A stretch of 62,244 bases of DNA, filler included, from Malassezia furfur (GCA_052055015.1; 24 parts of 24 records of this genome joined end to end with filler, not necessarily neighbours in it), one strand, 5' to 3'; counted from the whole stretch's first letter, positions 1-62,244 are shown. The notes: generated from the letters alone by a model not told the origin. Made by a program: numbers and translations.

Positions 1-125
1 GCGCGCATGGTATTCCGCATCTCGCTCAGAATGTCCGACAGACTCGCGCCCGGGATCGCCATGAACGGCGGCGTCTCGCGCGACTCGTTCTCCCTGCGTG
101 AGCGGCGCGCTACGTACTCGGCCAT
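1..125 (-). CDS. Hypothetical protein, 5' fragment (MAEENESRETPPFMAIPGASLSDILSEMR...)
   Basis: ATG at 125, a 24-nt GTACGT..CTCACGCAG intron at 94-117, then open to the window edge. Confidence 0.5.
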   Translation of the reverse strand, partial: MAEYVARRSRRENESRETPPFMAIPGASLSDILSEMRNTMR

Positions 126-290
126 CGTGCGCGTCCTCCACGCCGCGGCGCTGCTGACTCAGCGACGCCCCCGCTGGACCCTGTGTGCTTACGTAAAGCG
201 GGCCCCGTGCGCGGGCAGCGCCCGGGCCGCCCCTGTTCGGGGCGGCGGGCCCGTGCTGCGTCTTTCCCCTCACCTCGACTTTCTTCAGTT

Positions 291-788
291 ATGCCTCTCT
301 TCGTGCTCTCGCCCGTACGTTGCCGCCCGCGATGGCCCACTGACTCCTAGGCTTCGCTCGCGCACTCGGCCCTGTTCGCCGGCTACTACACCTACCTGTC
401 CGCGAACGTCGTGGCCCTCCGCAAGAAGGAGAACCAGGTGGACTCCGGCAAGGACGTGACGCCCGGCACTGCGCTGCACCGCGCTGTGCGTGCCCACGCC
501 AACTTTGCCGAGTACACGCCGTTCACCTTTGTGCTGCTGTTCCTTGCGGAGCTGAACGGTGCGCCGACCAAGTACGTGCACGCCGCGTACGTGACGCTGT
601 TTGCCTCGCGCGTCGCCGCGGGTCCTGGCCTGAACTGCGCCAAGCCCGGCAACGCGGCGCGTGTCGTGGGCTTCCTCGGCACCATCGCTGTGATGGTCGG
701 CTCGGGCCTGTACAACGTACGTTGCTCTTCACTGACGCAGTTCGGTCTCGGCTACGAGCCGCTCAAGTCGTTCCTCGGCATCCAGTAA
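291..788 (+). CDS. MAPEG family membrane protein (microsomal GST/eicosanoid metabolism family)
   Basis: Exons 291-314, 351-716, 741-788 (introns 36 and 24 nt). RAHANFAEYTP MAPEG motif and hydrophobic helices. Confidence 0.85.
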
Positions 789-815
789 ACCACGTCATGC
801 TACGTGCCATAGTCG

Positions 816-2533
816 CTAAAACATGGTCGACAACTTATTCGACGCAGAGCGCTGCACGCGCGCGCCCGGCGCGGGCTGCTTGGCCCAGTTCTTGCCAAAG
901 GTGAACCCGACCCACATCCCGCGCCCGCCGTCGGTGAGGCCCTGCTTCGCCTCCATGGCCTCCACGTGGCGCTGCTTCTCCTGGACCTCCTTGTACTTGG
1001 CCATGTCCGCGGGGTCGTCAAAGTTGTCAAAGTAGCCCGTGTCCTGCTCGCTCTCGAGCTGCGGGATAAACGGCGCGGGCACCTCGCGCATGCGCGCCAG
1101 GTCGACGCCCCGGAAGAAGGGGTGCGCCTGCACGTCCAGCAGCGAGTTGTACCGCTTCTCGGGCGTGTTGATCAGGCGCACGATCATGTCCCACGCCGTG
1201 TTGGTCAGGTTGAACTGCAAATCCTCGGGCTTGTCGTACACCGGGCGCTGCAGCGTCTTGGTCCAGTTCTTCAGGTTCGCCCACGTCTCGTCGGGGTGCG
1301 CGCCGCTGAACGGCGGGAAGCCACACAGGAACTCGTACAGAATGCACCCCAGGCTCCAGTAGTCGACGCTCGTGCCGTACTCCCGGCCGCGCAGCACCTC
1401 GGGCGCCATGTAGTCCGGCGAGCCCACGACCGAGTCGGCGTACCGCACGTTGTGCGCACGCATCGCCTGGTACAGCGAGCCGCGCTCCGCCGGCGTGCGG
1501 TACACCAGGTCGCTCTCCTTCACCTGGTCGAGGCGGCGCTTCAGCGACTCGATGCGGCCGGGGTTCAGCGCGCCGGACGCAAGGCCAAAGTCGGTCAGCT
1601 TGATGTGCCCCTGCGCGTCGATCAAAAAGTTCTCCGGCTTGAGGTCGCGGTGGATGTAGCCGAGCTTGTGCAGTTCGTTGACCGCGACAAACATCTCGGC
1701 GATGTAGAAGCGCGCGTGCTCCTCGCGCAGCACGCCGCTGTTGTTGAGCAGCGTGCGGAAGTCGCCGCCGGGCACATATTCCTGCGTAAGCCTCGTCCAC
1801 GCACCATCGCCAAGTACACATGCGTCTCGTCCTGGAACGCATACAGCAGCCGCACCAGCCACGGCGAGCGCGTCGCGGTGAGGATGTCGCGCTCAGTGAG
1901 CACGTGCCGCACCTCGTCCATCTTGATGAGCACGCGCTTGCGCAGCCGCTTGAGCGCACACAGCTCGCCCGTGTCGCGCTTGCGCGCCAAAAACACCTCG
2001 CCGTAGCCGCCCTGGCCGACCTGCGTGACGATGTGGAACTGCGCAAGGCGCAGCTTCGTGCGGCGGTGCAGCAGCAGCGCACGCTCCTGCGCAAAGTGCT
2101 GCTCGCGCGCGCGCTGGTACGCCGCCTCGCTCACCGCACTCGTGCTCGCGGCCGGCGCACGCGCCGGCGAGCGGTCGAGGCGCATGCCCGCCATGGTCTG
2201 CTCGAGCTGCTCCTCGCGCGAGACGTAGCCCTGTGCGCGCATGTCCTGCTCGAACTGCGCGAGCCGCTCGCGCCGGTCCGCGAGGTAGCGCAGCGAGTCA
2301 AAGTAGTGGTTCAGGAAGTAGATCTGCGCGAGCGTCGCCTTGCGCTGCACCTCGGGCATCTGCACGACGTCGCGCTCCCACGGCTGCAGCAGGTCCGCGG
2401 CCGTGTGGCTGTTCCAGCTCGGGCGCGCATACGCCGCGGCCGCAGGGTCCGCACGCACGGCCGTGGGCGGCGCCTCGCGCTTGGTGCGTGGGCTCGCGGT
2501 GGGCGTCGTCGTGGCCGCGGCCGTCGCCTGCAT
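816..2533 (-). CDS. DBF2: NDR-family Ser/Thr kinase, Dbf2/Sid2-like (true start may lie beyond the contig end)
   Basis: GQGGYGEV, HRDLKPEN, DFG, SVVGSPDYMAPE and C-terminal VGFTF. A 23-nt intron at 1782-1804 joins YLAM to EYVPGGDF. Confidence 0.9.
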
Positions 2534-2543
2534 GCGCCGCGTG

Positions 2544-11096: not shown

Positions 11097-13026
<1,930 letters not shown>

Positions 13027-13648: not shown

Positions 13649-15713
13649 ATGGCCTTGCCACGTCCGGATGATCCACTCCCCCCCCTGACGGGTCTCCGTT
13701 CCTGGTGGTCGGCGTTTGCGCGCGCGGCCCCCTCGCCTCGCGAGGAGCGCAGCGCAGACGACACGTCCATGTTCGGCGCTCCCCTCCCCGAGGCGCTCAA
13801 GCAGTCGAGCGTCGCGATCAGCCTCATCAACCAGGACGGCGAGCAGTACGTCTGGGGCTACGTCCCGGCGGTCGTCGCCAAGATCGGCCTGTTCCTGAAG
13901 CAGCATGGTACGTTGTGTGCCCTCGCGTGCGCCCCCCCGCTTACACCCAGCTACCGACGTCGAAGGCGTGTTCCGCATCAACGGATCCGAAAAGCGCATG
14001 AAGGAGCTGCGCACACAGTTCGATACGCCACCCGAGTACGGCAAGGACATCGACTGGGACGGCTACAACGTGCACGACGCCGCGACGCTCCTGCGCCGCT
14101 TCCTCAACCTCATGCCCGAGCCCGTGATCCCCGCGGACCGCTTCGCCGAGTTCCGCGAGGTGCTCGCGAAGCCCGTGGTCGACGAGGAAGAGGCGATTGG
14201 CGCCTATCGCAAGCTCATCACGTCGTGCCCGCCGGCGACACAGTACCTCCTCCTCTACCTCCTCGACCTGCTCGCCGTGTTTGAGCGCAATGCCGAGGTG
14301 AACAAAATGACCGCCAACAACCTCGCGATCCTGTTCCAGCCCGGGATGCTGACGCACCCCTCGGTGCGCACCAAGGAGGACCACCAGGCGGCCGTGCGCG
14401 TCGTCGAGTTCCTCATCACACACCAGGACCGCTTCGTGCTCGACGTGTCCGACCTGCCCCCGGCCGACATGCTCCCCGAGGAGCTCACGCGCCCGAAAAC
14501 CAAGGCCCCGCTGGAAAAGTACCTGCTCGTCCCGTCCGACTCGGACGAGGACCTCGGCGACCTCGAGGCGCACATGGGCGGCGGCGCCATGCTCGCCCGC
14601 AGCGCCCCCACCTCGCGCACCATGTTCCAGAGAAAGGAGCGCCGCCCGCGCCGCGACCGCCGCCGCTCGTCGTCGCAGGACGCCGCGCCATCCCCGGCCG
14701 CCGCCCCGTCCACGGCCGCCGCCCCGGAGCGCAAGGACACCACGCGCACCAAGCCGAGCGTCGTGCGCGAGTCGCGCAAGGCGGGCCGCAAGCGCGCCAA
14801 CTCGCACTCGGACGCCCAGGCACAGTCGCGCAGCACCTCACGCCACACCACCGACGCAGGTCCGTCCAACTCGCCGCGCGCGCGGCCCACGTCGCGCACC
14901 TCGTCTCGGGGGACCCTCGCACCGTCGTCGGCGCACCCGCGCCCGCCGCTCGTGAAGCGCTCCGCGTCGGAGTCCGGCTGGTCGGAGGCGTCGGAGGCGC
15001 AGCCGCCCACCACACGCTCGCCGAGCCGGCGCAGGCGCAACCAGTCGGCGTCGCCCACGGCGTCGCCCCTGCTCGGTGCCGAGCGCAACTCGGGCTCCCG
15101 CTCAAGCTTCAACGGCGGCTCGGGCAGCTCGCTCGAGGGCCGCACGCCGCGCCTCGGCGCCATGCCGACGATCCTGGCCGCGTCGCCGGACGCGTCGCCG
15201 GACGCGCTGCCCGACGCGTCGCCAGACACGCTGCCCGAGCCCGTGTCCCTCCCGGCGCCGGCCCAGCCGCTCGTCCCCGCCACCAACGACACGCCGCCGA
15301 CCCCGCCCGAAAAGGACGTGCCGCGGATACCCGTCGCGGCCGTCGCACGGCCACCCGCGCTCGAGCTGCGCGATGACAGCACAAGTGCGTCGGCGTCCGA
15401 GACGGCGCCGACCAGCGGCGTGTCGCCCCTCGCGTCCGAGTCGTCGTCGAGCGGCTCCGCACGCTCGCCCACGGACCGCACCGCACGCACGGCGCTGCCG
15501 ACTCCGTACCCCATGGACCCGCGCCTCGCGCAGCTCGGACCGGTGGTCGGCGCACCGGCCCAGGCCGAGGCGCCCGCGCCCGTGGCGGCTCCCGCGGTAG
15601 AGGCGGTCGCTGTGGCGGCGCCCGCTTTGCCGAGCAGCACACCTGCACCTGTGGCGGCGCCCGCTGTGGCGAGCAGCGCACCTGCACCCGTGGCGGCGCC
15701 CGCTGTGCCAAGC
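13649..15713 (+). CDS. Rho GTPase-activating protein, Sac7/Bag7-like (3' truncated)
   Basis: FGAPL..VWGYVPAVVAKIG, EGVFRINGSEKR and NKMTANNLAILFQPG. 43-nt intron at 13908-13950. Confidence 0.9.
15580..15713 (+). repeat. Coding tandem repeat of about 39 nt (PAPVAAPAVxSSx)
   Basis: Repeated cctgcacc(t/c)gtggcggcgcccgctgtg..agcagc units running into the contig end. Confidence 0.8.
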
Positions 15714-15923: not shown

Positions 15924-17526
15924 CTACTTGCCAATACAAAACCGCGCAAAGATGGCGCCCAGCACCTCGTCCGCGCCGAGCGTCTCGCCGGTGATTTGCC
16001 CGACGAGGTACGCGGCATGCCGCAGCTCCTCGGCCACGAGCGTCGCGTCGCCGTCGCACGCCGCGCACCGGTCGAGCGCCGCGAGCACGCCGCCGAGCAG
16101 GTGCGCATGCCGCGCCTCGGTAACGAGCGGCGGCTCACGCAGGTCCGCGGCGTGCCGCGCCGCCAGCAGCGCACCGACGTCCGCCAGCAGCGCGTCGACG
16201 CCCGTGTCGTGCAGCGCGCTCACCTGCCACACGCGGCACGCGACGCCGTCGTCGGCCGGCTCGCGCGAAGCGGGCGCCTCGTGCACAGTGTCCATCTTGT
16301 TCACCACAAGGAGCAGCTCGCGCTCGCCCGGCAGGCGCCCCAGCGCATCGGCGCCGCGCGCCGAAATGTGCGTCGCGCCGCTCGGCGGCACGCCGCCGAG
16401 CACGCGGCATGCCTCGCGCGCGTCGCACACGAGCAGCGCGAGGTCCGCGTCGCGGACGTGCGCCTCGGTGCGGGCGATGCCCTGCTGCTCGATGCCCCCG
16501 GCGGCGGTCCGCAGCCCGGCGGTGTCGCTCAGCTGCACACGGAAGCCGTGGAGCTCGAGCGCGGCGCACACGACGTCGCGCGTCGTCCCGGGCTCCGGCG
16601 AGACGATCGCCGCCTCGCGGCGCACGAGGCAGTTGAGCAGCAGCGACTTGCCGGCGTTCGGCCGGCCGTACAGCACGAGCTGTGTGCCGTGCGTGATCGC
16701 GTCCGACACGACCGGGCGCCCGTCAGGCATCGCGCGCCGGATCTGCGCACGCACACGGTCGACCGTGTCGCGCACCGACGCCCACAGCGTGTCGTCGATG
16801 CCGTCCTCGTCACTAAAGTCGAGCATCGCCTCGACACGCACCATCGCCTCGAGGAGGTCCGCACGCAGCGCATGGTACAGCTGCGCCTGCCGCCCGCCGC
16901 CCGTCTGCAGCGCAAGGCGGCGCTGCGTGCTGGTCTCGGCGCGCAGCAGCGCATCGAGCGCCTCGCACGACGTGAGGTCCATGCGCCCTTCCTCAAACGC
17001 GCGCCGCGTAAACTCGCCGGGCAGCGCCGGGCGCAGCGCCGCGGGGTCCACGGCGCCGATCGCCAGCAGCATGTCACGCACCACCGCGGGGCTCCCGTGG
17101 ACGTGCAGTTCCAGCACATCCTCGCCGGTGTACGAGTGCGGCCGGGGGAAGAAGAGCACAAGCGCCGTGTCGAGCACTTCGCGCGTCGTAGGGTGCCGCA
17201 GCGTGCGCAGAGCCGCGCGCCGCGGCTCGAGCGCGGGCGCCGTAGGACACAGCGCAACGTATACGGGCAAGGCGTGCGCACTGCGTGAGACACCCGACGT
17301 ACCCCGAGATGCGAAGGACACTCACCCCGCACGGCGGTGCGCCGCTCGCGAGCGCATAGATCGTGTCGACGGCGCGGGGTGCCGGCGTGTGCAGCGCACG
17401 CACAGCATACCGACCAGGCGCCACGCGCGGGACGGCCGCCCATGCGCCGCGCGCCGCTGCCCACCCCCGCACACCCCGGTGCACCGCTCGGCACCGCACG
17501 CACGCAACGCGCGCCGCTTGGTGCAT
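15924..17526 (-). CDS. MSS1: Mitochondrial tRNA modification GTPase (MnmE/GTPBP3)
   Basis: DTIYALASG, SYTGED, GRPNAGKS, PGTTRD, DTAG and terminal FCIGK. A 22-nt intron at 17281-17302 restores LRISG-AHA. Confidence 0.95.
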
Positions 17527-17571: not shown

Positions 17572-18329
17572 ATGGGCACGACGGCCTCGATGGACGGCCG
17601 TGTCCCGACCAACGAGGCAAAATACCGCGCGGCGCTCGCGAATATCGAGGCACTGTTCGAGAAGGACCCCAATGCCGAGGAGCTTGCCTCGTCGCAGAAA
17701 CTGCTCGGGCCGCTGTACCGCACGCTCGATTCGCGGCGCTCGGTCGCGATGCCGAACCAGCCGCGGGGCATCCCGCTAAACCTTGTGGTGCGCCGCGCCC
17801 ACTCACGCAGGTCAAGACGCTCAAGAGCGCATGGCACGTCGATGGCACATGGCCGCTCATCGGCTACGACGAGGCCGAAAAGCACCGCGTGTGCCCTCCG
17901 GAACACTGCGTCGTGCGCTTCCTGCACGTCTCGTCGCACCGGCACAAGGACCTCGTGCGCAACGAGGAGTACGAACGCGCGAAGCGCAATGGTGCCATCT
18001 TGCCGTGCAAGCCCGCATCCGGCGGCACTGCGTTTGTAGAAAAGAGCGCGGACGCCATTGCCGCGGCCTACGCTGCGCGCGCGGCGCAGCAAGGCACGAG
18101 CGGGGCGAAGCGCGGCGCGCACGACGAGGTACGGACGAGGCGGGCATCGGACGCGGGACAGGTGCCCGTGGCGCGCCGGCTGTCGGATGCGTCCCGCCCG
18201 CGGCGCCCTTCCGACACGCCTCCCACGCGCCGGCTGTCGGAATCTTCCCGCCCGCGGCGCCCTTCCGACACCCCACAGCCCCGCCGCGCCTCGGACGCAG
18301 CACGCACACTCCCACCCCCTCTTCGCTAG
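17572..18329 (+). CDS. Hypothetical protein with an MGxxxS N-terminus and RRxS(D/E) repeats
   Basis: Exons 17572-17787 and 17811-18329, joined by a 23-nt intron that explains the frame change. Confidence 0.7.
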
Positions 18330-19061: not shown

Positions 19062-20125
19062 CTAGATACCGAGCTGGCGTTTCATTGCGGACCACACCGC
19101 GAAGCTGATGGCGGTCATCGGCACCACCTTGATATACCCAATCGACAGCCCAACGTAGAAGCCGCGCCAGCCATGCATCCGGTAGATGCTGCGGACCGTC
19201 TCGCGGAGCGTGAGGATGCTCGACGGGCGCAGAATGCCGCCGATCTGCTGCCGCCGGCGGACGACTTCGAGGGGGTATGAGGCCGTCTGGGAGATGGCGC
19301 CCGCCAGCGCGCCGGCCGTCAGGTCGACCACGGTGCGGTTCACGTTCCAGAGCGGCGCAACGTTCTCGTATCCGGGGAGCACCTCGCCCGTGGTCTCCTT
19401 GTGCAGCAGGCCGTGGTACAGCGCCGTCTTGCAGCGCCCAAACACAAGGAACGACGTGCCGGCGTACGGAATCATGCCGAGCACGGTTGCAGAAAACCCG
19501 CGGTAGAACTTGAGCAGCGGGATGCGGTTCAGCAGCAATGACGCGGGGCTCTCGGCGATGCGCCCATCCGCTGCGACGGTCGTGGCGCCCTCGTGATAGA
19601 TGGTGTCGATGACGTTGCGTAAATTTTTGTGATGCGGATACGTGCGCGTATCAAACGCCAGACGTACGCGGATCAGCTCCAGCGGGTACGTGAGGAAGAC
19701 GGACAGCACGCCGGACATGGAGCCGGCCAGGAACAGGCGCGCGTTCGTCTCGTCGCGCGGCGTCGGCATGAGCGCGAGATGCAGGGCATCGTAGGCCATA
19801 TACTTGATCGCCGCGTACGGAAAGATGCGGAGCAGCGTGGCGCTGTGTCCTTGGAAGAGGCCCACAAACCCCTGCTGCTTGACGATGTTGCGCCCCGCGT
19901 CAATCACGCCGAGCCACCGCCCACTGTATTTTTGGTAGTCGGGGTTCGCTGCCTGGAACAAAATTTTGACGCGGTCGAGCGGCGCAATCGCGGTCTTGGC
20001 CTGTGTGTTAGTACGGCACGTACCGCGCATCCAGCAATCCCGCCCGCAAGGCCGCTGCGCACGACATAGTCCCAATTGCGCTTCGCCCGGGGCGACTTCC
20101 GTTGCTTCTCCGCACTCGATGGCAT
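19062..20125 (-). CDS. LEU5: Mitochondrial carrier, CoA transporter Leu5/SLC25A16-like
   Basis: Three PLD/E repeats (APLDRVKILFQ, YPLELIRVR, YPLEVVRRR) and GHSATLLRIFPYAAIK. 23-nt intron at 20001-20023. Confidence 0.9.
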
Positions 20126-20945: not shown

Positions 20946-21045
20946 NNNNNNNNNNNNNNNNNNNNNNNNNNNNNNNNNNNNNNNNNNNNTTAATTAATTA
21001 ANNNNNNNNNNNNNNNNNNNNNNNNNNNNNNNNNNNNNNNNNNNN

Positions 21046-21403: not shown

Positions 21404-21432
21404 CTAGAGGGGTCAGAATTGCGTCTAAGGCA

Positions 21433-35678: not shown

Positions 35679-36400
<722 letters not shown>

Positions 36401-41840: not shown

Positions 41841-43491
41841 TGTGTGAGTGGGTGGCGATGCGCGCATCGCGCGCCGCGCTCGACGGCGCGTGGTGGCGCG
41901 CGCTCGGCGGCTACCTGGCGCAGGAGATCGAGCGCGACTACCTCTCGGCAGACACGACGTCTTTTGTCAAGACGCTCGCGCAGATGCTCGGCGTGGGCGT
42001 GCTGGACGACGTTGCGCCGCTGGTCGATAGCCTCGTGGCCGAGCGTGACCGGCACAAGCACCGCGCGGCCGCCGAGCTCGTGGGCGGTGTCATCCGCGGC
42101 GCCAAGCACTGGCCACTCGCGGACCAGGCGCGGCTGTGGCGCTGGTGCGACGCGTGGATGCCGCGCGTGCTCACCACCAGCACGCCGGACTCGCAGCCGT
42201 CGTGGCAGATGTGCGTCGAGTACGTGTACAAGCAGCGCGACCCGCGGCGCGCGCGCAGCCTGCTCGTGTTTGTCGTGGAGCACGCGGCGTCGAGCTTGGC
42301 GTCGGCGCGCAACAGCCCCCTCGAGCAGGCGCACGCGCAGCTGCTGCTCGCCGGCGCGCTGCGCTCGCTCGAGCACAAGTTTGACGCGTGGGGCGCCGAC
42401 GCGGTGCGTGCGCGGTGCTTTGCGCACTTCGGGCACGACTACCAGGAGGTGCGCAAGGCGCTCGCCGAGAACCTCGTCGAGCTCGAGTACGCGCATGCCG
42501 TGCCCGCGTTTGCGAGCGTCGACGCGTTCCTCGACGCGGGGCGCACCGCGTCCGGCTCGCTGCTGGCGCACGATGCCGGCGTGAAGGCGCGGTGCGCGCA
42601 GCTGTCCAAGGAGCTGGGGGTGTGGCGCGGGGAGCGTGTCCCGAGCGCGCTCGGCACCTCGCTGTACGACCGCGCGGCGATGACCGGCGCGGTGTGGGTG
42701 TCGCTGAGCTTGGACGACCACCGCCTCGGGCCGATGGGCACCGAGGTCGTGGCGCTCGTGCCGGACCTGTTTGCCATGTACCAGCTGCGCGACAACCCCG
42801 AGCTCGCGGCGATCGCCAAGTCGGTGCTGATCAAGGTAGCGTCCTACCCCTTTTCTGCGGCGCAGGCCGTGCCGCTCGTGCGCACGCTGCTCGCGCTCGC
42901 GCGCGACGCGCACGACTCGTGGCATGCGCGCCTCGACGCGCTGCCGCTGCTGCAGATCGTCTACTTCCAAAAGTACGTGGCGCGCACAACTGACCCAGCC
43001 TGTTCTACCTGCCACCGGACGTCGTCCAGGAGGTGTTCCACGTGCTGCTCGACCTGCTCGCCGACCGGCACCTCGAGGTGCGCGAGATGGCCGCGACGAC
43101 GCTCGCGGGCCTGGTCCGGTGCTCGCAGCGCTCGCTCGTGCACACGCTGCGCGCGCGCTTTGTGGCGCAGGTCGCGGCGCGCCCCGTGCCGCGCCGCGGG
43201 GCACCGCACTACGACGCCCAGCTGCTGGCGCTGCATGCGGCGCTGCTGGGCGCCACGGCGCTCGTGGCCGCGTTCCCGTACGAGGTGCCGGCGTGGATGC
43301 CCGACCTCGTGCTCGACACCATCGCGCCGCACTCGGACGACCCCGTGCCGATCAGCACCACGGTGCGCCACTGCGCCGCCGAGTTCCGGCGCACGCACCA
43401 GGACACGTGGGCCGAGGACCAGCGCCAGTTCGGCGACCGCGTCCAGGAGGTGAACGACTTTACACTGGGCCGTAGCGACTATTTCGTGTAG
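41841..43491 (+). CDS. BLM10: Proteasome activator Blm10/PA200, C-terminal fragment
   Basis: AAELVGGVIRGAKHW, EVREMAATTLAG, AFPYEVPAWMP, EFRRTHQDTW and terminal DYFV*. 26-nt intron at 42973-42998. Confidence 0.92.
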
Positions 43492-43506: not shown

Positions 43507-44321
43507 TCATGACGAGCACGACGGCAGGTGGCCCCGCAGCAGCGCGCCGATCTCGCCATAGCGCGCATCGTCCGCGCGCAGGTCGTCAAAGGGATGCGTA
43601 CAGAGCTGCGTAAGTGGGCGCGCACATACCTTGCGCACACGCTCGACCGTCGCGGTATCGTTGTGCTCCTCCAGGCGCTCGGCCACCTCGTCGGTGATCC
43701 AGTTGCGCAGCGTAAATGCGGGGTTTTTCTGCCGCATGCCTGCGGCGATGTCGGCCGCCGGCCGCCCCGCGGCGTCGAGCCACGTTGTGTAGCGCTCGAG
43801 CCATGCGCGCGCCGCCTCGACGTGTGCCGCGTCGTCCGAGGCGGCGGCGCCGTCGCGGTGCGCTGCGTGCGCCACCCACGCCTGCGCAAACGCGGCCAGC
43901 GACTCGGACGTGGTGGGGAAGGAGCACAGGTACCGCATCGCGCGCGTCATGTCGAGCCCGGCGAGCACCTCGGTGAGCGGGTCGATCAGCTCCGCCTTGT
44001 CGACCTCGGCGCCGCGCGACGCGACGCCCAGGCGGGCGCACCACGCCGCGGACCATGCGTCGAGCAGCACCTGCTGCAGCTCGGCGCGGATCGAGTCGGT
44101 ACACGCCTCCACCGCATGGTCGGCCCACTCCGCGCGCTCCTTGTCGCCGACGGCGAGCAGCTCGCCGGGCTGCGGCGCGCGGCCGTGGATGTGCTCGAAG
44201 CCGAGCACGGGCCCGAGCGCCTCGAGCAGCTTGTCGACGGCAAACAGCACCATGGTCGGCTGCAGTTTGTACGAGTAGCGGCCCAGCACGTCCGAGTGGT
44301 TGCACACCTGCTCCTCGTCAA
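43507..44321 (-). CDS. FMP40: SelO/Fmp40 protein adenylyltransferase, C-terminal fragment
   Basis: CNHSD..GRYSY..QP, MRQKNPAFTLRNW and terminal SCSS*. 24-nt intron at 43606-43629. Confidence 0.88.
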
Positions 44322-44626: not shown

Positions 44627-46899
44627 TCACAGAAAGTTGAGTGCGGCCGCGAGCTTGTCGGCGGGGTCCGCGTCGAGGCGCGCCATCTCGATCTCCGACA
44701 GGAGCTTTTTGATGCCGATCGACAGGCGGCCCTCCTGCTCCAGGCCCGCGTGCGCGAGCAGCTGCAGGCAGCGCTGGCGCGCCGCGTCGTCCGCGAACAG
44801 CTGCGTCTCGCGCAGGACATGGTCGACGCTGCGCAGCGACGTGATGTTCGGCACGCGGATGTCGGCCAGGAACGCGTCGCCGAGGTCCATCTCGGTGAGC
44901 ATTGTCTTGTTCGACGTGGTGCCGAGCACAAGCAGGCGGCGGTCCTTGGGCGGCTGCTTGCCCAGCAGCACCGCCAGCGCCTGCAGCACCGGGTTCGAGA
45001 AGCGCGGGCCGATCGGGTTCCACTCGATGATCTTCTCGAGCGAGTCGAGCACGATGATGCTCAGCGGGCTCTTGTAGGCGTCGTTGAACACCTTGTGCAG
45101 GTACGCAATCTTGCCCGCCTCGTTCATGCCGACCATGTTCTCCGGCGCGACCAGCTTGATGAATGGGAAGTCGGACGCCATGGCGATCGTCGCCGCGAGC
45201 GCCGTCTTGCCCGAGCCCGCGGGGCCGTGCAGCAGCGCAGTGACGAGCGACGTGCGCGCCGACGTGCGCACCTGCTCGACACGCAGCTGGCCGTCGCGCA
45301 AAATCACGTCAATGTGCGGCGCATAGTGCATGATGCCGTTGCGCACCACCTGCTGCAGCTCCTCCTCGGCGACACCAAACGCGGGCTTCACCTCGTCGAG
45401 CGCACACAAGAAGTCTTCGCGGTTCACGCGCATGTTTTCGACGTCGTCCGAGATGCCCGCGACCGTGCCGACCTTGACGTGCCGGTTGAACGCAAAACTC
45501 GTCGCGCTCTTGACTAGGCCGGCGATCTCGGCACCGGAGAAGTTCTTCGTGAGCGCCGCCAGCTCCTCGAGGCGCACGTCGTGGTCCATGATGTCGTTCG
45601 CGCGCATCTTGGCCGTCTGGATGTTGAGGATCTGCAGCCGGCCGTGCTCGTCGGGCAGGCTGATCTCCATGTGCACCTCCAAGCGGCCGGGACGCAGGAG
45701 CGCCTCGTCGATCATGTCGAGGCGGTTCGTCATACCGATCAGCAGGATGTTGTTCAGCTGGTCGACGCCGTCCATCTTGGACAGCAGCTGGTTCACCACC
45801 GAGTCGCCGACGCCCGTGCCGCCGCTCGTCGAGCCACGCTGCTTGCAGATCGCATCGAGCTCGTCAAAGATGATGATGTGCAGGCCACTCTCGTCGCCCT
45901 TGGCCTTCTGCTCGGCCTCGGCCTCCGCAAACAGCTTGCGCACATTCTCCTCGCTCGCACCGACGTACTTGCTCAGGATCTCGGGGCCGTTGACCACCTT
46001 GGGCTCGCCGGCGTTGAGCATCTTGCCGATCTGCCGCGCCATGAGCGTTTTTCCCGTGCCGGGCGGGCCGTAGAGCAGCAGGCCCTTGACGTGCTGGATG
46101 CCGAGCTTGTCGACCAAGTCCGGCGGGAAGATGCGCGACGCAAACGCACGCCGGAAGATCGCACTGAACTCGCTGTCCAGACCGCCGATGCCCATGTCCT
46201 CAAACTTGAAGTTGGGCTGCAGGATCGCGTTGGTGCGCGGGCGCTTGCCGCTCGCCTTGAGCTGCATCGGGCTGTTCGGCGCCTTGATGAAGTTGATCTG
46301 CGTCTGCGGCGTGACGAGGCCCAGCTCACTGCCGGGCACCTGGTCCATCGACGCCAGGCCACGCACCGTCGCGCGCAAATTGTGCCCGTGGAACTCAAAG
46401 ACGAGGATCTGCCCCGGCGACAGGACGTGCGCGCTGAACGCCGTGAGGAAGGTCGCCTGCATCTCGTCGGCGTCAAACACATCCATCACAGCCATGCTCC
46501 GGCTCAAGAAGTCGAGCTCGAGATCGACACCGCCCAGGTACAGCGCCGAGCCAAACTGCTGTGGGTCGAACGCCTCGACGGTGACGTCCTGCCCCTCGGC
46601 GCTGAGCGCGGCCCACTGCCGCTGCAGCAGCGCGGTACCGATCGTGCGCGGCGCAATGGTGCGGGTGTTGTCGGCGCTGCGTTAGTGGGTGACGTACCGT
46701 GCCGTAAATGTATAGCGCCCGTTCACCACGACGTACTGCGTGTGCCCCCACTCCTCGGGGTTCAGAATCACGCAGTTGGTCGTGTTCAGCGACTGCGGCG
46801 CCTTGACGACACGCATCATGTGCGGCTGCCGCGACTCGGCGGTGCGTGGCGGCACGCCAGGCGCCGGGCGCGGGGGTAGCGGCGCCGGTGCGGCGGCCG
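44627..46899 (-). CDS. SEC18: Vesicle-fusing ATPase NSF/Sec18 (5' truncated)
   Basis: MGIGGLD, GPPGTGKT, IIIFDELDAICKQRG and D2 GPAGSGKT. 21-nt intron at 46677-46697 with an in-frame TAA. Confidence 0.96.
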
Positions 46900-49576: not shown

Positions 49577-51453
49577 AGCAGCAGGCGCGGCGGGCGCGGC
49601 AGGGTCGCCAGACGTAGCTGGAGCAGCAGGCACAACGGGCGCAGCGGGCGCGGCTGGCGTCGCTGCCGGCGCGGCGGGTGCCGCCACCGGCTCGGTTGAC
49701 GTGCTCGTGGGTATCGGCGCCTCGGGGCGCAGTGTGCGCTGCAGCGACGGCTGCGACGCATAGTGGTACGGGCGGCCGAGCTCGTTGTAGTCAAATACCG
49801 CCACCGAGCAGTACCCGTCCGTAGACGACATCATGAGCACCTGGCCATCGGGCGACCAGGCGAGGTCGGTGAACGACGCATAGTGCAGGTTGCTGAAGCA
49901 GCACAGCGGTGCAGACTGCTGTGTGTCGTACACCCACACGCTCTCCTGCGTCGCGATCGCATACACCATGCGGTACGGCAGCGCAAACGTCCGTGCGGCA
50001 CCGTCCACACCGAGGGCAGCCGCATGCACCTCGCCATGCGCCAACGGCACGCTGGGCGGCGCGCGTGTCGTGCCGTCCTCGCCACGCAGACGGTACAGGA
50101 TTGGTGAGAAGGCGACGGCCAGCGTCGCCGTCTTGTGCCCCGGGAGGGCTGCAATGGGCGCATGCGACTTTTCAAAGTTGCCGCGCGCATACAGCCATAC
50201 GGCGCTCGTTGTGCTCGCCGCGCGTCCCTCGGCATCCGGCGGTGTGTATTGCCCCGTGGGCGTTGCCAGCAGCGCACCATCCGTCGAAAACGCGAGGCGC
50301 CGGAAGAAGCTGCTGTAGCGGTCGTCGCCGTACAGCTTGTGTGACGACGACGCACCGCCCGGCGTGGCTGCCAGCAGCCGCTCGCGGGGCGACGGCGGCG
50401 CGCGGATCGCAGGGAGCGGTGCTGGCGACGGCGACCGTGTCGGTGCGCGTGTATGGGCGGGCGACGGCGACGGACGCGCCAGCGTCTTGGCCGGAGACGC
50501 CGGCGGACGGGCCGGCGTCTTGGCGGGCGACGCGGGGGGCGGCGCACGCGCGTCGCCCTCGCCCGCACGCTCGTCGCTGCCCGCCTTGGCTGCCACATCG
50601 ACCGACGCATGGCGGCTCACTAACTGTACGTCGCGTGCCGCTTCGTTCTGTGCACGCAGCAGGCGGTACATGTGCACAGCGCGGTCGCTGCTCTGCGTCG
50701 CGAGAAACTCGTTCAGCGGGTCCCACGCGAGGCCCTGTACATAGTGCTGATGGTCGGCAATCTCGCGCACGACGGTGCCGTCGGCAGTATTGATGATGCG
50801 CACCGCAAAGTCGGTTCCGCCGACCGCGAGCTGATCGCCGTCCGGGCTCCACGCCATGTCGTACAGCTCTTGCGACGTGGCGCGGCTCATGAGGCGTACG
50901 CGCCACGCCTCCTTCTCGTACGGCGCCTGAGGGTCGCCGCTCGCGGCGCCTTCGCCAAACGCGGGGCGCAGCTGCTCGCTGCGTATCCAAAACAGGACGG
51001 TGCCGTCGTCGCCCGCGGACGCGAGCACGTCACCGCTCGGCGAGAAGCGCACCACATTCACCACACCCGTGTGCCGCGCAAGCGTCGCGGCATACTCGGC
51101 GCGCGGGGGATGCGCCGCGGCGGCACCGGCGGCCGCCAACGCCGAGGGCGAGGGGATGTGGGGGTGAATGATCCAGATGCGCACATTGTTGTCGCCGCCG
51201 GCAGTCGCGAGGCGCCAGCTCTGCCCGCCTGCGAGGATGGGCGCGTGGGTCTCGCTGGCGGCCTCGCTGCCTTCGCCAGGCAAAGCACGTCCGGGTGGGA
51301 GTCCGGCCGCTGGGCGTTAGAGGGCGACCTACCTTGCCCGAGATTATGGTCCAACACTTTCGCGAGACGCCCCGGCGCGATCGGCTGGAACGCACACGAG
51401 TAGATGGGCAGCGTATCGTGCCATCGTATCTCGAACGTCACGCAGCGCACCAT
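49577..51453 (-). CDS. CAC2: Chromatin assembly factor 1 subunit B (WD40), 3' truncated
   Basis: EIRWHD..PIYS, LATAGGDNNVRIW, HYVQGLAWDP, FFRRLAFS, LPYRMVYAIAT and SSTDGYCS. 23-nt intron at 51310-51332. Confidence 0.93.
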
Positions 51454-52311: not shown

Positions 52312-54616
52312 CTATGTACTCGTAGGCTTGAACGTGATTTCCGACAAAACGTTGAACCCCTCCTTGTAGGCGTCGAGCAGGGCCTGGACGCGCTGGCGCT
52401 CCTTGGTGAGCGCTTCGTCCTCGTGCAGGAGCGACTCAAAGAGGTTCTCCTTGTACAGGTTGATCACCAGCCGGTTCTGTACCGTGTCGCGCGAGAAGTT
52501 GACGAGCAGGTGCATCACCGCCTTGGGCACGAGGTCCTGGATCGAGAGGCGCACAATGTTGAAGTAGGACGTGATCAGCTGGCGGATCAAGTTGACCTCC
52601 ACCGCCTCGCGCTCCGACAGCGCACGCTCGTCGTCCGGGATCGCATCCGACTGGAGGTAGTGGTCCAGGCTCTTCATGTCGAACGCGGCGCTGCTGCCCT
52701 CGAGGCCCCCGCGGCCCGCGAGCAGGTTGGGCTTCTGTTCCCCGAGGCGCGTGTGCAGCCCAAAGTTGGACGCACTGCCGCTCGGCTCGTGCAGCGGCAG
52801 GCTGCTTGGGCCGCCAAAGAAATAGTTCAAGAACGACTCGCGCTGGCCGTTGGGGCCGAGCGCATCGCTCCCAGCGTCGCTCGCATCGTGAGGGCGCGCG
52901 CGGTGTGCGCCAGGGCGCGCGTGCGACGAGGGTGCATCGCGGTGCGCGCCGTTCACGGCGACCGTGCGCGTGTTCCGCGCATGCTCCGACTCGTCCTCGG
53001 ACGGCGCATTGCTCACATCCACGTCCGAGTCCACCGACGTCTCGTGGCGCGGCGGCTTGTGGGGCGCGGCAAGCGGCTTGGCCGGCGCGCCGCGCATGTG
53101 CATCGCGATCGACGCCGAATCCTGCACGAAGGTGGGGTGGTTCGTGTTGATGTAGGCAGCCTGGATGTCGATCAGGCTCTGCACGTATTCGGACGTGGGC
53201 CCCAGGCGCTCGCGCAGCAAGTCCGACACCACCTCGATCAGCTGGGCGTGCAGGCGGGGGAAGCGCTGCAGCTCGGTGCTGGTGCAGTTGTGGCAGATCT
53301 TCATCAGCTCCTCGTACACCAGCTCAACACACCGCAGGCTCGGCGGCTCGAGCAGCTTGATCTGCGGCTTAATCAGCAGCTCGAACGCGGCCTCGGGCAC
53401 AAACAGGCTGGGGCGCGGGCCGGTCGAGTTGCGGATCGCCGTGCGAATGTCCTGCACGGTGAGGTTCTGCACGGGGTTGATTGAGCCGAGCGCCTGGCCG
53501 AATACGTCCTGGAAGATGTAGTAGACACGCGCGCCGCCACACAGCTCCTTGGTCGAGATATCAAACGAGGTGCCCTCGATCGACGCCACAAAGTCGCGCG
53601 CAAACTGCGTCATGAGCTTGAGGATGAGCGTGCCGCGGTGCTCGTGGCCCATAAAGGCCACGTCGCCAAACGACGCAAGCTCCTGCTGCGCCTGGCCCAT
53701 GAGCGTGTTCAGCCGCGCCTTCATGTCAGGCAGGCGGTCGCGGATGTGGCTCATGAGTACCTGGTTCAGCGTCTTGGCCAGGAATTTGGTGCCGCAGCGG
53801 TGCGCAATGTTGCGGTACGCGGGGTGCGACCGGAAGAACTCCTCCTCGCTGCGCCGCGCCATGTCGAGCGGCACGTTGCTGTTGATGTCTTGCTGCGAGC
53901 GGTTCACCACACCGACAAACCCGAGCTTGAGCGGGTAGATGCGCCCGGTCAGAATATCAAGTGCGTTGGTGCCCGAGTCCATCAGGTCGAGCTTGGTGAG
54001 CACACCAATCGTGCGCTTGCCCTGCGGGTCGACGCTCCGCGCGAGCTTCAGGCTGTCCGAGTTGGCCAGGTCGACGTTCGCGGGGCTCACCGCCATAATA
54101 ATGCAGTTCGGCTTTGAGATGTAGTCGGTCACCAGCGACCGGATCTGGCGCTCAATGTCCGACGGCTGGTCGCCCACCGGGATCTTGGTCAGGCCGGGCA
54201 GGTCGACGAGCGTCAGGTTGATCACATTGGGGCTGTAGATCTTCAGGTGGATGGGCTGCTTAGAGATGCCCTTGTTCTGCCCCGCCACACGGAAGGTCTC
54301 GTTCTCAATCTCGTTGCGAATTGACGCAAAGTCGGTGAAGCGGCGGTCGATGTGCAAAAACTCGCCGTATTCCTCCGGGTGCATGCGCGCGCCATCCGTC
54401 GATGGCACATGGATCAGCTGCAGCACCAGCGGACGGCGCGTCACGATCCCACTGCCGCGCGGCAAAAAGTCCCGGCCTACAATCCTGCGGTCAGTACAGC
54501 GCACACGCACGTCTCCAGCACACTCGACTTGCCGGACGACTGCGACCCGACGACGACACACTGTGGCAAATCCACACTGTGCCCGCCGATCGCAGTAAAC
54601 GTCTCTTGCAGCCTAT
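52312..54616 (-). CDS. DNM1: Dynamin-related GTPase Dnm1 (first codons missing)
   Basis: [39 protein letters not shown] and a GED. 26-nt intron at 54485-54510. Confidence 0.93.
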
Positions 54617-54842: not shown

Positions 54843-55510
54843 ATGCCCCCGACGGGCACGGGCAAAGCGCGCGCGCGCGCGCGCGACGCGCCGATCGACC
54901 CGAGGGTACGCACCACGCGCTCACACAGATCCCCAAGGGCGCCAACGTGAAGCGCAGCATCTACTATGACCCGGTATGGAACCCGTACGGCGCACCGCCG
55001 CCGGGCATGCCGTACAAGGAGCGCTGTACGTGTGCCACTGACGCAGCCCCGACGCCGGACCCGTACGCGGTGAGCGACGCGCCCTCTGCAAAGAGCAAGG
55101 CGCCTACAAAGAGCGACGCGCCGCCCAAGCCCGCGGAAGACGACAGCGACGACGACATCGCCCTGCCGACCGCACCGCGGCCGCCGTCCGACGACGACTC
55201 GGACGACGACATCGTCATGCCCGCGGGGCCGCCGCCGCCCGAGGCGCGCGTCGCGCCGCCGATGCCGATCGTGCAGCCGCGCATCGCCGCGCCGCGTGCG
55301 CAGCCCGAGACCGTCGCGCCCGTGCGCTACGAGGCGCCGCCCACCACGCGCAAGCATAGCCCCCCGGCGCCCGAGACCGACGACGCGCCGGACGACGCGC
55401 CATCCGCCGACGCGACCACCATCTCGGCCGCGCCACAGCTCCGCGCGTTCCAGCACGACGCGACCACCTTTGTGCCCACGTCGGTGCGCAAGCGCGCGCG
55501 CCAGCGATAG
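54843..55510 (+). CDS. WBP11-like proline-rich splicing-associated protein (short form)
   Basis: RSIYYDPVWNPYGAPPPGMPY and SAAPQLR..EAT-like..FVPTSV. Introns 54906-54928 (23 nt) and 55026-55046 (21 nt). Confidence 0.7.
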
Positions 55511-55542
55511 TCACGTGATAGCGCGACGCGGTGTTGTTCGCC

Positions 55543-59161: not shown

Positions 59162-59706
59162 ATGCCCGGCGAAGACGCGCTGGCGCTCGTGCACGAGGCG
59201 AAGCTGAGCCGCGCGACGGGCGCGCTGCGGCCGTACAAGTACGTGGCATGCTCACCCAGTGCGGAGCTCGTGCGACTCGTGCTCCTCGAGACGCGGCAGC
59301 TGCACCAGCAGCTCGTCCCGCTCGCCGACGCGGCGCGCGCCCAGTCCGCGGAGGGCGCGGCGCGCGCCGACCCCGCGCTTGCGGCGCAGCTCGTGGCGCT
59401 GCACCTCCAGGCGTACCGCAACAAGCGGTGCCTGCTCGTGTACCACGCCGAGCGCCTCGCGTGGCTCAAGCAGCGCGTCTGGGACAAGGCCGGGGCGCTG
59501 CCGCTCGTGCTCGACGAGGAGGCGGCCGCGGGCGCCGAGGTCGTGTCGCTGCGCCCGCTGCTGAGCCATGCAGAGCTCGCGTGGCTGCGCGCGTACACGG
59601 GGCTGCTCGGCCTGTACAAGGAGACCTACCTCGACGTTTTGGACGTCACCCTGCCGCTGGCCACGGGCGCCGCACGCGCGCGCTCGGACGCGGCGGTGCC
59701 CGCGCG
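59162..59706 (+). CDS. PSF1: GINS complex subunit Psf1 (3' truncated)
   Basis: ALALVHEAK, RNKRCLLVYHAER and LSHAE..YK. 21-nt intron at 59239-59259. Confidence 0.88.
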
Positions 59707-59806
59707 NNNNNNNNNNNNNNNNNNNNNNNNNNNNNNNNNNNNNNNNNNNNTTAATTAATTAANNNNNNNNNNNNNNNNNNNNNNNNNNNNNNNNNNNNNN
59801 NNNNNN

Positions 59807-59975
59807 CCGGCGCCGCTTTGCTTGTGGACGCTGCGGGCGACGCTTTGCTCGTGGACGCTGCCGGCGCCGCTTTGCTTGTGGACGCTGCGGGCGACGCTTT
59901 GCTCGTGGACGCTGCGGGCGACGCTTGACTTGTGCATGCCGCAGGCGACGCTTGGCTCGTGCGTGCCGCGGGCGA
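59807..59975 (-). repeat. Coding 27-nt tandem repeat (A[S/A]PAASTS[K/Q]), about 6 copies
   Basis: Repeated gacgctttgct(c/t)gtggacgctgc units running into the contig end. Confidence 0.88.
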
Positions 59976-62244
59976 CGATCCCTTCCCAGTCGACGTCGGC
60001 CACGTATACGCACTGCCGGACGACGAGATGCGCAGGCCGCTCGCGATTTCCGCGTCGTCCGAGTCGTCGCTCAGGTTCGCGATGCGGTCCGAGGAGCGGC
60101 TCGCGACAGGCACGTCGTCCTCCGCGTCGCTGCCCTCGCGATGCTCGTCGCGCCGCGTGCGCCGCAGCTCGTTGGCACTGCAGAATGCCAGCGTGGTCTG
60201 CTGCGAGCCGTGCGGCTTGGCGGCCGGCGCCTTTTTCGTGCGCTTGGTCTTGGCGCGCGCCGGCGCCGCGCGCTGCAGCGGGCGCGGATCGAACGGCGGC
60301 TGCTCGACCTCGCACATGACGGGCTCGGGCCGGATCTCGGGCGGGACGAGGCGGCTGACGTCGGTGTACAGCTCGATGATGTTGGCGGAGCGCACGAGGC
60401 GCTGCACGCTCTTGTACGAGTCCTTGGAGTGCTGCCAGTTGTGCTCCTCGCGTCCCTCGGTCATGAGCACGACGATGCGTCCGTCACGCATGCGCCCCGT
60501 GCGGCCGACGCGCTGGAGCGCACGCACCGAGTCGCGCACCGCCTCGTAGCACACGATCAGGTCGACCTCGCCGATGTCGAGGCCCTCCTCGCCGATCGAG
60601 GTCGCGACGAGCACCTGGAACGTGCCCTTCTGGAAGTCGGTGAGGATCTGCTCCTGGACCTTTTGCGTGAAGCCGCGGTTGCCCTTCTTGTCGGTGGCCT
60701 GCCCGATGAACGGCGTGGCGCGCAGGCCGTGCGCCTGGAGCAGCGCGACGATCTCGGTGACCACCTCGCGGTACGAGCAGAACACCATGACGCGCGTCGA
60801 CGCGTGCGCCGCGACGTGCTCCTGGAGCACGCCGAGGAGCGCGTGCATCTTGGGGTGCACGAGGTCGTCCTGGACGCCCTCAAGCGCGAGTGCGTACGCC
60901 TGGAACGCGGGGTTGCGCGGCGAGAACACCTGGTCCTTCTTGGCGCCGCCCTTGCTCGGCGCCGTGATCGCCTGCGCGCGGTCGCAGAACACGCGCACCG
61001 ACTCTTCCGCGAGGTACTGCAGCGCGAGCGCCATGTTGGACAGCTGCGTGAGGCTGCCGCGCAGGTAGGGCTTCTCGGCGAGGATCGCGCGGCCGTGCGC
61101 GTCGTTCGCGGCCGCACGCACCGCGAACGAGCGCAGCGCGCCCGTGTCGGCATTGCGCAGCACGCCGTGCTTGAGCAGCGGGTCGTGGAAGGTGCGCATC
61201 AGCGCCACCCACGCGGCGCGCAGGTGGCCGACCGCGTCGCCGAGCGGCACGCGCACGAGCTGCTCGTGCTTCGTGTGCAGGTAGGGCTGGATGTCGAGTG
61301 CGTCCTCGGTGCGGATCTCGATGCGGTTGATGTGCAGGTTGTTGACGACCTCCTGCACCTTGTCGGCGTGGCTGCCCGGCGTCGCGGTGAGCGCCAGGAC
61401 GCGGAAGTGCGGGTTGTGGTACATGAGGTGGCGGATCACCTTGCAGTACGCATAGTTGCCCGTCGCGCGGTGCGCCTCGTCGACCACGACGCACACCACG
61501 TCGCGGGGGTCGCACGTCGTGGACAGCAGGTCGTTCTCGAACGTCTGCGGCGTCATGTAAAAGATGCGCTTCGTCTGCCACTCGTCGTCGCGCAGCGCGC
61601 GCCGCGTGCTGCCCGTGAGCTCGATCGCCGTGTCCCACGGGAGGCCGCAGATGCTGTGGCACGCCTGCTGCTGCTGCGTCACGAGCGGGCGCGTGGGGGC
61701 GACAAAGATGACTGCGTCAGCGCGGCACGTACTCTTTCCCTCGGGGAACCAGCGGAACATGTTAAGGATCACGACCGCCGCGATGAACGTCTTGCCGAGG
61801 CCCGTCGGCAGCGCGACGAGCACGTTGTGAAAGAGCGCCTTTTGCACAATGTTCAGCTGGTAGGTGCGCAGCGGCTTGTTCACGGGGTAGATCCACGTCT
61901 GCGCCGCGGCGCGGTCGATCGCCAGCTTCATGGGGCGCTCGGCGGGCGGCGACGGGAGCGGCGCGCGCCGCTCGTACAGCACGTCGGCGTCGTCGTCGCC
62001 GGTCGGCTTCGTGACGCGGTTGCCGTGGACAAAGATGCTGTGGTCCCACACCTTGACGGCGGCCCACGCAAAGCCGCCCGTGCTCGCGGACGGCGGGGCC
62101 GGCGCGACCGACAACGTGCCCTGCGACGACTCGACGGCCGTGGGGGGGGTATACGAGTGGCCCCACAGGCCCTGCTGGGTGAGGCCCGCGGGCGACGACG
62201 CGGGGTGCGACGTGCGGGCGGGCGCGGCGAGGGCGGGCGCCTTG
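59807..62244 (-). CDS. MPH1: FANCM-family DEAH helicase Mph1 (partial)
   Basis: LPTGLGKT, VDEAHRATG, LALTATPG, ATSIGEEGLDI and QRVGRTGR. A 21-nt intron at 61712-61732 restores GKIIFVAPT. Confidence 0.95.

Follow-up and report, generated by a model that had tools for sequence, protein, structure and literature searches.

What sets the minimal length of a spliceosomal intron, and what that length is, remains an open question, for which the usual cases are ciliates, nucleomorphs, microsporidia, mikrocytids and, lately, myxozoans. Introns average 25 nucleotides (nt) in Paramecium (10.1101/2021.08.05.455221), measure 15-16 nt in Stentor, have medians of 22-27 bp in myxozoans and dicyemids (PMC13644364), and are all 16-17 nt in mikrocytids (PMC10245619). 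Malassezia yeasts are also known for short introns, as the original prediction for the DNA analysed here had noted: the literature gives a mean of 30 bp for the curated M. sympodialis annotation (5350 introns in 4493 genes, 99% RNA-seq-supported; PMC5389616), a median of 30 bp for M. restricta (PMC9241646, on M. restricta and M. arunalokei), an M. restricta annotation that allowed introns down to a minimum of 15-20 (PMC6473144) and, in a review, the words 'very short introns' (PMC7426719). The genus-wide genome paper of 2015 reports an average intron of 76-79 for M. globosa and otherwise leaves intron length untreated (PMC4634964), and the word intron is absent from the genus-wide genome paper of 2023 (PMC10410736). 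Here we describe the introns of one window, a stretch of 62,244 bases (67.8% G+C) from a Malassezia of the furfur clade, in which the shortest and commonest intron class is 21 nt long and has a fixed internal layout.

All counts refer to 43 curated GT-AG introns in this 62-kb window, identified by a motif scan, reading of the joined peptide in all three phases, and Pfam exon coordinates. The first exon of the LTA4H gene is 96% identical over 587 residues to a Malassezia furfur CBS14141 protein, the next named relatives being smut fungi at ~60%, while PSF1 is 90% identical to an M. furfur record and SAF1 82% identical to an M. brasiliensis record. Ordinary eukaryotic families were recovered by Pfam among the translated open frames, including kinase, cullin, dynamin, urease, LTA4 hydrolase, Sec18/NSF, a FANCM-type helicase and others. 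The original prediction had called about 44 introns, with ten, one, eight and six at 21, 22, 23 and 24 nt; our independent count reproduced these four class sizes and adds three each at 25, 26 and 27 nt, and one each at 28, 30, 31, 32, 36, 37, 42, 43 and 77 nt. The median is 24 nt and the mean 26.7 nt, with 34 of 43 introns within 21-27 nt and none below 21 nt. The predicted mode at 21 nt stands as the commonest class, although it is weak (ten introns versus eight at 23 nt) because four of the ten 21-mers lie in one gene, NEDD8. The sharp minimum, the narrow spread and the median below 30 nt are, for this one window, the marks of an ultra-short-intron lineage.

Compared with other Malassezia, the window is alike in its GT-AG introns and in their density (43 in ~35 genes, versus 5350 in 4493 for M. 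sympodialis) but differs in its median of 24 nt and in having a quarter of its introns at exactly 21 nt, where the literature gives 30 bp both for the M. sympodialis mean and for the M. restricta median. With ciliates it shares narrow lengths, a hard minimum and a lack of space for a polypyrimidine tract, whereas ciliates are AT-rich, with weak branch signals; the window is 68% GC with a strong, fixed CTNAC, and its minimum lies above that of Stentor. Mikrocytids likewise have numerous, sequence-conserved introns at the short extreme, but these parasites have a spliceosome that is highly reduced and introns of one fixed length; the window, from a yeast that can be cultured, has a floor and longer introns of up to 77 nt. 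Myxozoans and dicyemids have a comparable median and are argued to use canonical U2-type signals, although their branch signal is only a weak run of A's. Irimia and Roy are said to have described, in 2008, fused branch and acceptor motifs in intron-poor eukaryotes (Giardia, Trichomonas). There, too, the branch motif is fixed a few bases from the AG and acts with it as one 3′ element; in the window, by contrast, that distance is 5 nt, there is about one intron per gene, and the 5′ distance is minimal too.

The ten 21-mers share a single geometry. The pattern GTRCGYNNNNNNCTNACSCAG (GTRCGY-N6-CTNAC-SCAG) occurs at exactly the ten predicted places in the window and nowhere in 100 dinucleotide-preserving shuffles, and all ten introns fit it. 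A looser scan (donor GTRNGY, a CTNAY branch, then AG) showed an excess only from 21 nt up: 13 matches versus 1.8 expected at 21 nt, 9 versus 1.4 at 23 nt and 9 versus 2.0 at 24 nt, while lengths of 12-20 nt, pooled, gave 10 matches versus ~5 expected. Across the whole set, the donor is GT[AG]NG[CT] in 43 of 43 introns (GTACGT in 25, GTGCGT in 9), the 3′ end is AG in 43 of 43 (CAG in 41), and CTNAC is present in 42, its A, the putative branch point by motif, lying 5-9 nt from the 3′ end. U12-type introns carry a rigid /RTATCCTT donor and the branch motif TCCTTAAC; ATCC at positions 3-6 was found in 0 of 43 introns. By donor, branch motif, acceptor and restoration of frame or protein, the 43 introns fall within the major (U2-type) GT-AG class as judged from sequence. 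They are very probably ordinary major-type spliceosomal introns of a GC-rich furfur-clade Malassezia, compacted to little beyond the three splicing signals.

The original prediction had argued that several introns contain stops or shift the frame and so must be removed. This applies to 27 of the 43 introns, of which 21 shift the frame and 6 have lengths that are multiples of three (3n) with an in-frame stop, but it fails for the other 16, which are 3n and stop-free. The 21-mers, whose length is divisible by three, all preserve the frame; in-frame stops occur in 3 of the 10, and the remaining 7 would read through. Because the argument from stops and frame does not reach the 16 stop-free introns, these were tested against homologues. 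When aligned with homologues, eight of the ten 21-mers prove to be inserts of exactly 7 residues (four in NEDD8, and one each in LTA4H, FANCM/Mph1, PSF1 and SAF1), and the other two carry in-frame stops. Alignment or residue counts also cover the 24-nt and 77-nt LTA4H introns and five E2 introns.

For example, the spliced NEDD8 model of 79 residues can be aligned over 71 residues, without a gap and at 56% identity, to the ubiquitin encoded in the window itself; its exon 3 corresponds to residues 23-49 of RUB1/NEDD8 chains, and exons 1 and 2 supply exactly 22 residues. Read through, FANCM/Mph1 shows a gap of exactly 7 residues to human FANCM (9el5_A) at 61712-61732. In five annotated PSF1 proteins of Malassezia, that of M. 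furfur among them, the junction at 59239-59259 is exactly the spliced one, a comparison that settled the point after a Protein Data Bank search with the PSF1 read-through returned no match. Among 10 aligned relatives of SAF1, 6 lack exactly the 7 residues of 55026-55046, 3 read through and 1 aligns poorly. For LTA4H, a phmmer comparison with the yeast protein absorbed the 7-residue insert without opening a gap; a multiple alignment with smut-fungus orthologues resolved this, with excision of 21687-21707 and 21557-21580 giving a gapless alignment with the Ustilago, Pseudozyma and Meira proteins. In the E2 gene, exons 4 and 6 match residues 41-101 and 113-147 of the UBE2D2 chain 1ur6_A, exons 1-3 (24, 72 and 24 nt) supply the 40 codons before residue 41, and the 30-nt exon 5 with its split codons supplies residues 102-112. 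The 40-residue first exon of Sec18 had no match in the Protein Data Bank.

That the stop-free 21- and 24-nt elements are instead coding insertions retained in mRNA, with an incidental splice-like motif, might be proposed from the 16 introns that are 3n and stop-free, and from the deposited M. brasiliensis SAF1 and M. vespertilionis PSF1, which hold the corresponding residues. We consider this hardly credible: the full 21-nt motif has a chance expectation of 0, eight stop-free cases coincide exactly with gaps in homologues, the M. furfur PSF1 record already has the spliced junction, and the read-through peptides of the other records appear to back-translate to the same donor-branch-acceptor layout. 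Introns of 3n length are also in excess in the window (22 of 43; one-sided binomial p = 0.012 against one third), a figure to be read with the cases not being independent, four lying in one gene; 16 of the 22 are stop-free. In Paramecium, stop-free 3n introns are depleted, the opposite of what the window holds.

The predicted absence of introns below 21 nt held in this window, where no shorter candidate survived checking. A strict-geometry scan, with the 3′ part fixed at five bases and the spacer varied, gave 6 matches in all for spacers of 0-5, none of them a curated intron, and 11 for a spacer of 6, comprising 10 curated introns and 1 match nested in a 25-mer; shuffles gave 0.00-0.07 matches per spacer. 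Where homology is decisive between a nested short form and a longer one (NEDD8, dynamin, RING finger, cullin), it picks the longer. A motif-free search, which looked for short GT..AG stretches between two frames that look coding, gave no credible case below 21 nt, while recovering only 14 of the 43 curated introns. The floor could still be a sampling effect, with introns of 17-20 nt existing genome-wide and 21 nt being merely where a steep, continuous distribution becomes visible among 43. The size of the sample (43 introns, one window), the insensitivity of the motif-free test, and the minimum of 15-20 chosen by the M. restricta annotators, which implies that very short introns were expected (PMC6473144), all lend this some weight. 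It is nonetheless unlikely, if worth keeping in view, given that ten introns stand exactly at the minimum and none at the three lengths below, that all motif matches below 21 nt are nested, antisense to a supported gene or frame-breaking, and that each of the two distances making up an intron clusters at its own lowest value (14 of 42 and 27 of 42).

Short and nested candidates were rejected on several grounds. Five of the six short-spacer matches are nested in longer curated introns with a common acceptor, and 51624-51642 (19 nt), rejected on frame logic only, lies within an open frame that its removal would break; an EH domain guessed at this place found no Pfam support. The match at 3776-3793 is antisense to a Pfam-supported gene, and 50886-50899 lies inside a Pfam-supported exon. 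Matches at 3776-3797, 16101-16142, 23046-23066 and 40956-40994 were rejected as antisense. Rejected nested alternatives are the 17-nt forms 38189-38205, 38346-38362 and 55030-55046, the 15-nt form 38346-38360, the 20-nt forms 43606-43625 and 54485-54504, the 21-nt form 20301-20321 and the 24-nt form 41133-41156; the 19-nt peroxiredoxin form 37257-37275, also nested in a curated intron, was set aside only on donor strength and open reading frame length. Seven new loci raised by the motif-free test lie opposite Pfam-supported genes or in the NEDD8/urease overlap and were judged spurious.

The hard left edge at 21 nt resolves into two separate minima whose sum it is. In 14 of 42 introns the putative branch A stands at position 16, the earliest place at which it occurs, and its distance to the 3′ end is 5 nt in 27 of 42 and never less. 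In longer introns the added length falls upstream of the branch motif, placing its A at 17-36, downstream of it, where the distance becomes 6-9 nt, or on both sides. The original prediction placed the branch A of the 21-mers at position 16; the A of CTNAC is there in all of them, although its role as the branch point comes from the motif. The predicted lack of a polypyrimidine tract follows from the same layout, since the 4 nt between the branch A and the 3′ G leave no room for one.

Orthologous LTA4H genes on two metagenome contigs, L001 (58.6% GC) and L002 (51.4% GC), provided a comparison. Where the window has its 21-nt LTA4H intron, L001 has one of 24 nt and L002 one of 61 nt; the window's 24-nt intron is absent from both, and the last intron measures 77 nt in the window, 35 nt in L001 and 48 nt in L002. 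Across the three, donor, branch and acceptor motifs are kept and interiors differ, as expected of introns. Plausible introns read by eye are mostly 24 nt (range 23-35) in L001 and 32-61 nt in L002, and the 21-nt class seems to be a feature of the GC-rich furfur clade, not one shared by the entire genus. By-eye reading also disposed of two shorter candidates in L001: the 19-nt candidate 20629-20647 looks like coding sequence of a P-type ATPase, and the 18-nt alternative 21755-21772 fits an RCC1 repeat worse than its 24-nt form.

If the limit acted on total length alone (~21 nt), the branch would be free to approach either end, and L001 has two candidates of that kind, GTACGT..CTTACAG (21 nt) and GTGCGT..CTCACAG (22 nt), with an AG 3 nt past the branch A. 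Each, however, has a tandem in-frame AG 3 nt on, giving 24 and 25 nt. In the cullin intron 41129-41156, the only decidable case in the window, the AG 3 nt after the branch A is skipped and the AG at 7 nt is used, and in no curated intron, however long, does the branch A come before position 16. A limit on total length is thus improbable, and a limit on each of the two spacings remains the reading we favour.

An intron of the 21-nt class consists of a 6-nt donor (mostly GTACGT), 6 unconstrained bases, CTNAC with its A at position 16, and four bases ending in CAG. Under a limit on both spacings, the local spliceosome would need ~15 nt from the donor G to the branch A, so that the donor helix and the branch helix (the U2-pairing stretch) would be separated by about four unpaired bases; the acceptor G would need at least 5 nt from the branch A, the first AG at or beyond that distance would be used, and the polypyrimidine tract would not be read. 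Tentatively, and with doubt slightly outweighing confidence, we propose that furfur-clade yeasts are subject to a hard two-part limit of 15 nt from donor G to branch A plus 5 nt from branch A to acceptor G, with canonical conserved signals and no polypyrimidine tract. Both the identity of the branch A and the spacing rule as the cause of the floor are what we infer from this pattern. The original prediction had attributed the floor to a steric limit between the 5′ splice site and the branch helix. As a general limit at 21 nt, this is contradicted by the introns of Stentor (15-16 nt) and mikrocytids (16-17 nt); since these lineages splice shorter introns, any length limit would be specific to this one.

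The suggestion that so short an intron requires a remodelled spliceosome, for example through loss or change of the U2AF large subunit/Mud2, SF1, U1 or SF3b parts, has in its favour that 4 nt cannot hold a polypyrimidine tract and that mikrocytids, with their 16-17-nt introns, have a highly reduced spliceosome (PMC10245619). We regard it as doubtful, because donor, branch and acceptor all follow the canonical fungal motifs, and because Stentor and myxozoans, whose introns measure 15-27 bp, are nevertheless reported to have canonical U2 and U2AF and a spliceosome that functions (PMC13644364). Rfam at the gathering threshold gave no match of any kind in the window, and hence no small nuclear RNA.

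Several points weigh against a hard floor set by two spacings in efficiently spliced introns. Every figure comes from 43 introns in 62 kb, and 4 of the 10 21-mers lie in one gene. Efficient splicing of these segments in RNA is what their DNA would predict, branch points were assigned by motif, and the 77-nt intron 21448-21524 contains no CTNAC. The stop-free 3n introns at 94, 717, 31698, 41641 and 43606 have the motif or a by-eye reading as their evidence. Two L001 candidates can be read as 21-22 nt with an AG only 3 nt past the branch A, although each has the second AG described above. Finally, the motif-free test is a weak guard against unusual introns below 21 nt, since it recovered only a third of the curated set (14 of 43).

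Full-text searches found no statement of a 21-nt mode, floor or geometry, the intron length plot of PMC5389616 (Fig. S8) being unreadable, and no link between Malassezia and the ultra-short-intron literature appeared among the matches listed. A 2026 paper lists ciliates, microsporidia and dicyemids as lineages with introns below 30 bp and does not name Malassezia there (PMC13644364). Very short Malassezia introns were thus already known, and 21-nt introns are already in public annotation through the M. furfur PSF1 record, but the sharp 21-nt limit and the fixed layout seem not to have been described before. The observation adds a quantitative, mechanistically suggestive detail, drawn from the sequence of one window, to a known property of the genus. 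The hard two-part limit, if correct, would mean that no fungi outside microsporidia have shorter introns than furfur-clade yeasts, and would make these yeasts a model of minimal-intron splicing that can be cultured and transformed. Both spacings can be read straight from the sequence because the signals stay strong and canonical, and the length limits could be tested by single-base deletion, since M. furfur can be transformed and edited.

A practical consequence, if the reading is right, would be that stop-free introns of 21-27 nt are read through as coding in deposited Malassezia proteomes. Stop-free introns of 21, 24 or 27 nt escape checks based on open reading frames. In a small sample, at least three deposited Malassezia proteins mishandle such introns (P0137, P0126, P0002). 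The M. brasiliensis SAF1 record reads through a 21-nt intron, the M. vespertilionis PSF1 record has a 9-residue insert at the intron site, and in the M. furfur LTA4H record two residues are missing at the 21-nt intron and the C-terminus is mis-joined.

Table 1. Curated introns of the window, with position, strand and the evidence for each.
Intron and gene	Position	Strand	Evidence
24 nt, gene off left edge	94..117	-	Full motif, A at 19, 5 nt from 3′ end; 3n, stop-free, motif only
36 nt, MAPEG-family gene	315..350	+	In-frame stop; Pfam MAPEG in downstream exon
24 nt, MAPEG-family gene	717..740	+	Full motif; 3n, stop-free, motif only
23 nt, protein kinase	1782..1804	-	Frame shift; Pkinase profile 1-77 in upstream exon, 74-149 in downstream exon
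42 nt, ubiquitin-ribosomal protein fusion	11269..11310	-	In-frame stop; junction after ubiquitin C-terminus
43 nt, RhoGAP gene	13908..13950	+	Frame shift; downstream exon is RhoGAP from profile position 15
22 nt, MnmE/TrmE GTPase	17281..17302	-	Frame shift; TrmE_N profile from position 29 in downstream exon
23 nt, gene without assigned family	17788..17810	+	Frame shift; open flanks of 674 and 172 codons
23 nt, mitochondrial carrier	20001..20023	-	Frame shift; carrier signature restored at junction
25 nt, RING-finger gene	20297..20321	+	In-frame stop; RING C-G-H restored; nested 21-nt form breaks frame
77 nt, LTA4H, before 4-codon last exon	21448..21524	-	No CTNAC; terminal peptide common to relatives; same intron position in L001 and L002
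24 nt, LTA4H	21557..21580	-	Stop-free; gapless alignment once removed
21 nt, LTA4H	21687..21707	-	Stop-free; gapless alignment once removed
32 nt, imidazoleglycerol-phosphate dehydratase	29183..29214	+	In-frame stop; junction read; Pfam IGPD
23 nt, small gene without assigned family	31117..31139	+	Frame shift; open flanks
24 nt, WLM-domain gene	31698..31721	-	Stop-free; junction just before HExxH (by eye); Pfam WLM
23 nt, WLM-domain gene	31864..31886	-	Frame shift
25 nt, cohesin SCC3/STAG	32284..32308	+	In-frame stop; Pfam STAG downstream
37 nt, UBC4/5-type E2	35920..35956	-	Exon 6 match to 1ur6_A; exon 5 residue count exact
27 nt, E2	35987..36013	-	Exon 4 match to 1ur6_A
27 nt, E2	36198..36224	-	Residue count of exons 1-3
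26 nt, E2	36249..36274	-	Frame shift; E2 residue count
30 nt, E2	36347..36376	-	E2 residue count
25 nt, gene without assigned family	37014..37038	+	In-frame stop; open flanks
23 nt, peroxiredoxin (AhpC/TSA)	37257..37279	-	Frame shift; C-terminus not conserved
21 nt, peroxiredoxin	37341..37361	-	In-frame stop; Pfam AhpC-TSA in upstream exon
21 nt, NEDD8 intron 4	38113..38133	-	Gapless alignment of spliced model with ubiquitin
21 nt, NEDD8 intron 3	38189..38209	-	In-frame stop; gapless ubiquitin alignment
21 nt, NEDD8 intron 2	38293..38313	-	Exon 3 match; 22-residue count
21 nt, NEDD8 intron 1	38346..38366	-	Exon 3 match; 22-residue count; ubiquitin alignment
24 nt, urease gamma/beta junction	38728..38751	+	In-frame stop; Urease_gamma upstream, Urease_beta downstream
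28 nt, cullin	41129..41156	-	Cullin junction only with 28-nt choice, not 24-nt; Pfam Cullin
31 nt, cullin	41481..41511	-	Frame shift
27 nt, cullin	41641..41667	-	Stop-free; motif only
26 nt, PSME4/Blm10 proteasome activator	42973..42998	+	Frame shift; Pfam HEAT_PSME4 upstream, PSME4_C downstream
24 nt, SelO	43606..43629	-	Stop-free; motif only; nested 20-nt form would shift frame
21 nt, Sec18/NSF	46677..46697	-	In-frame stop; downstream exon aligns to Sec18 from residue 75
23 nt, CAF1B/HIR1-type WD40 gene	51310..51332	-	Frame shift
26 nt, dynamin	54485..54510	-	Frame shift; segment after P-loop restored; nested 20-nt form adds two residues
23 nt, SAF1 (NpwBP)	54906..54928	+	Frame shift
21 nt, SAF1	55026..55046	+	Stop-free; relatives without the 7 residues
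21 nt, PSF1 (GINS)	59239..59259	+	Stop-free; Malassezia orthologues have spliced junction
21 nt, FANCM/Mph1 helicase	61712..61732	-	Stop-free; 7-residue gap versus human FANCM

The window contains 46 runs of exactly 44 N, paired ~2.6 kb apart, which are masks and not biology; they interrupt a number of genes, among them the dynamin, Sac1-like and cullin genes at their starts. A custom Viterbi gene finder with motif-scored and flat intron penalties was misled by these runs, merged neighbouring genes through long false introns and was excluded from the census. At 20320-20990, the same DNA seems to be claimed by a RING-finger gene on the plus strand and by MOD5 on the minus strand, a region made harder to read by N runs at 20946-21045. 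The 43 introns are a lower bound, since further introns may lie in this region.

The LTA4H donor after ..MISK can pair with two acceptors (window 21404-21524, minus strand; L001 11996-12062; L002 11901-11993). Use of the near acceptor gives the 77-nt intron, followed by a last exon of 4 codons and the stop of LTA4H, while the far acceptor (121 nt, with a strong CTGAC branch) leads to an in-frame join to the frame of a tRNA isopentenyltransferase (MOD5), which has no ATG of its own. The same two-acceptor layout and phase, with an ATG four codons before the shared donor, are also present in L001 and L002. Either an LTA4H-MOD5 fusion by alternative acceptors or a MOD5 start inside LTA4H would account for this arrangement.

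Very small exons accompany the short introns. The E2 gene has internal exons of 24 nt (36225-36248) and 30 nt (35957-35986) on the minus strand, the last coding exon of LTA4H (21433-21447, minus strand) consists of four codons and a stop, and the four upstream NEDD8 exons measure 32-83 nt. SAF1 (54843-55510, plus strand), whose fission-yeast namesake is a splicing-associated factor, itself bears a 23-nt and a 21-nt intron.

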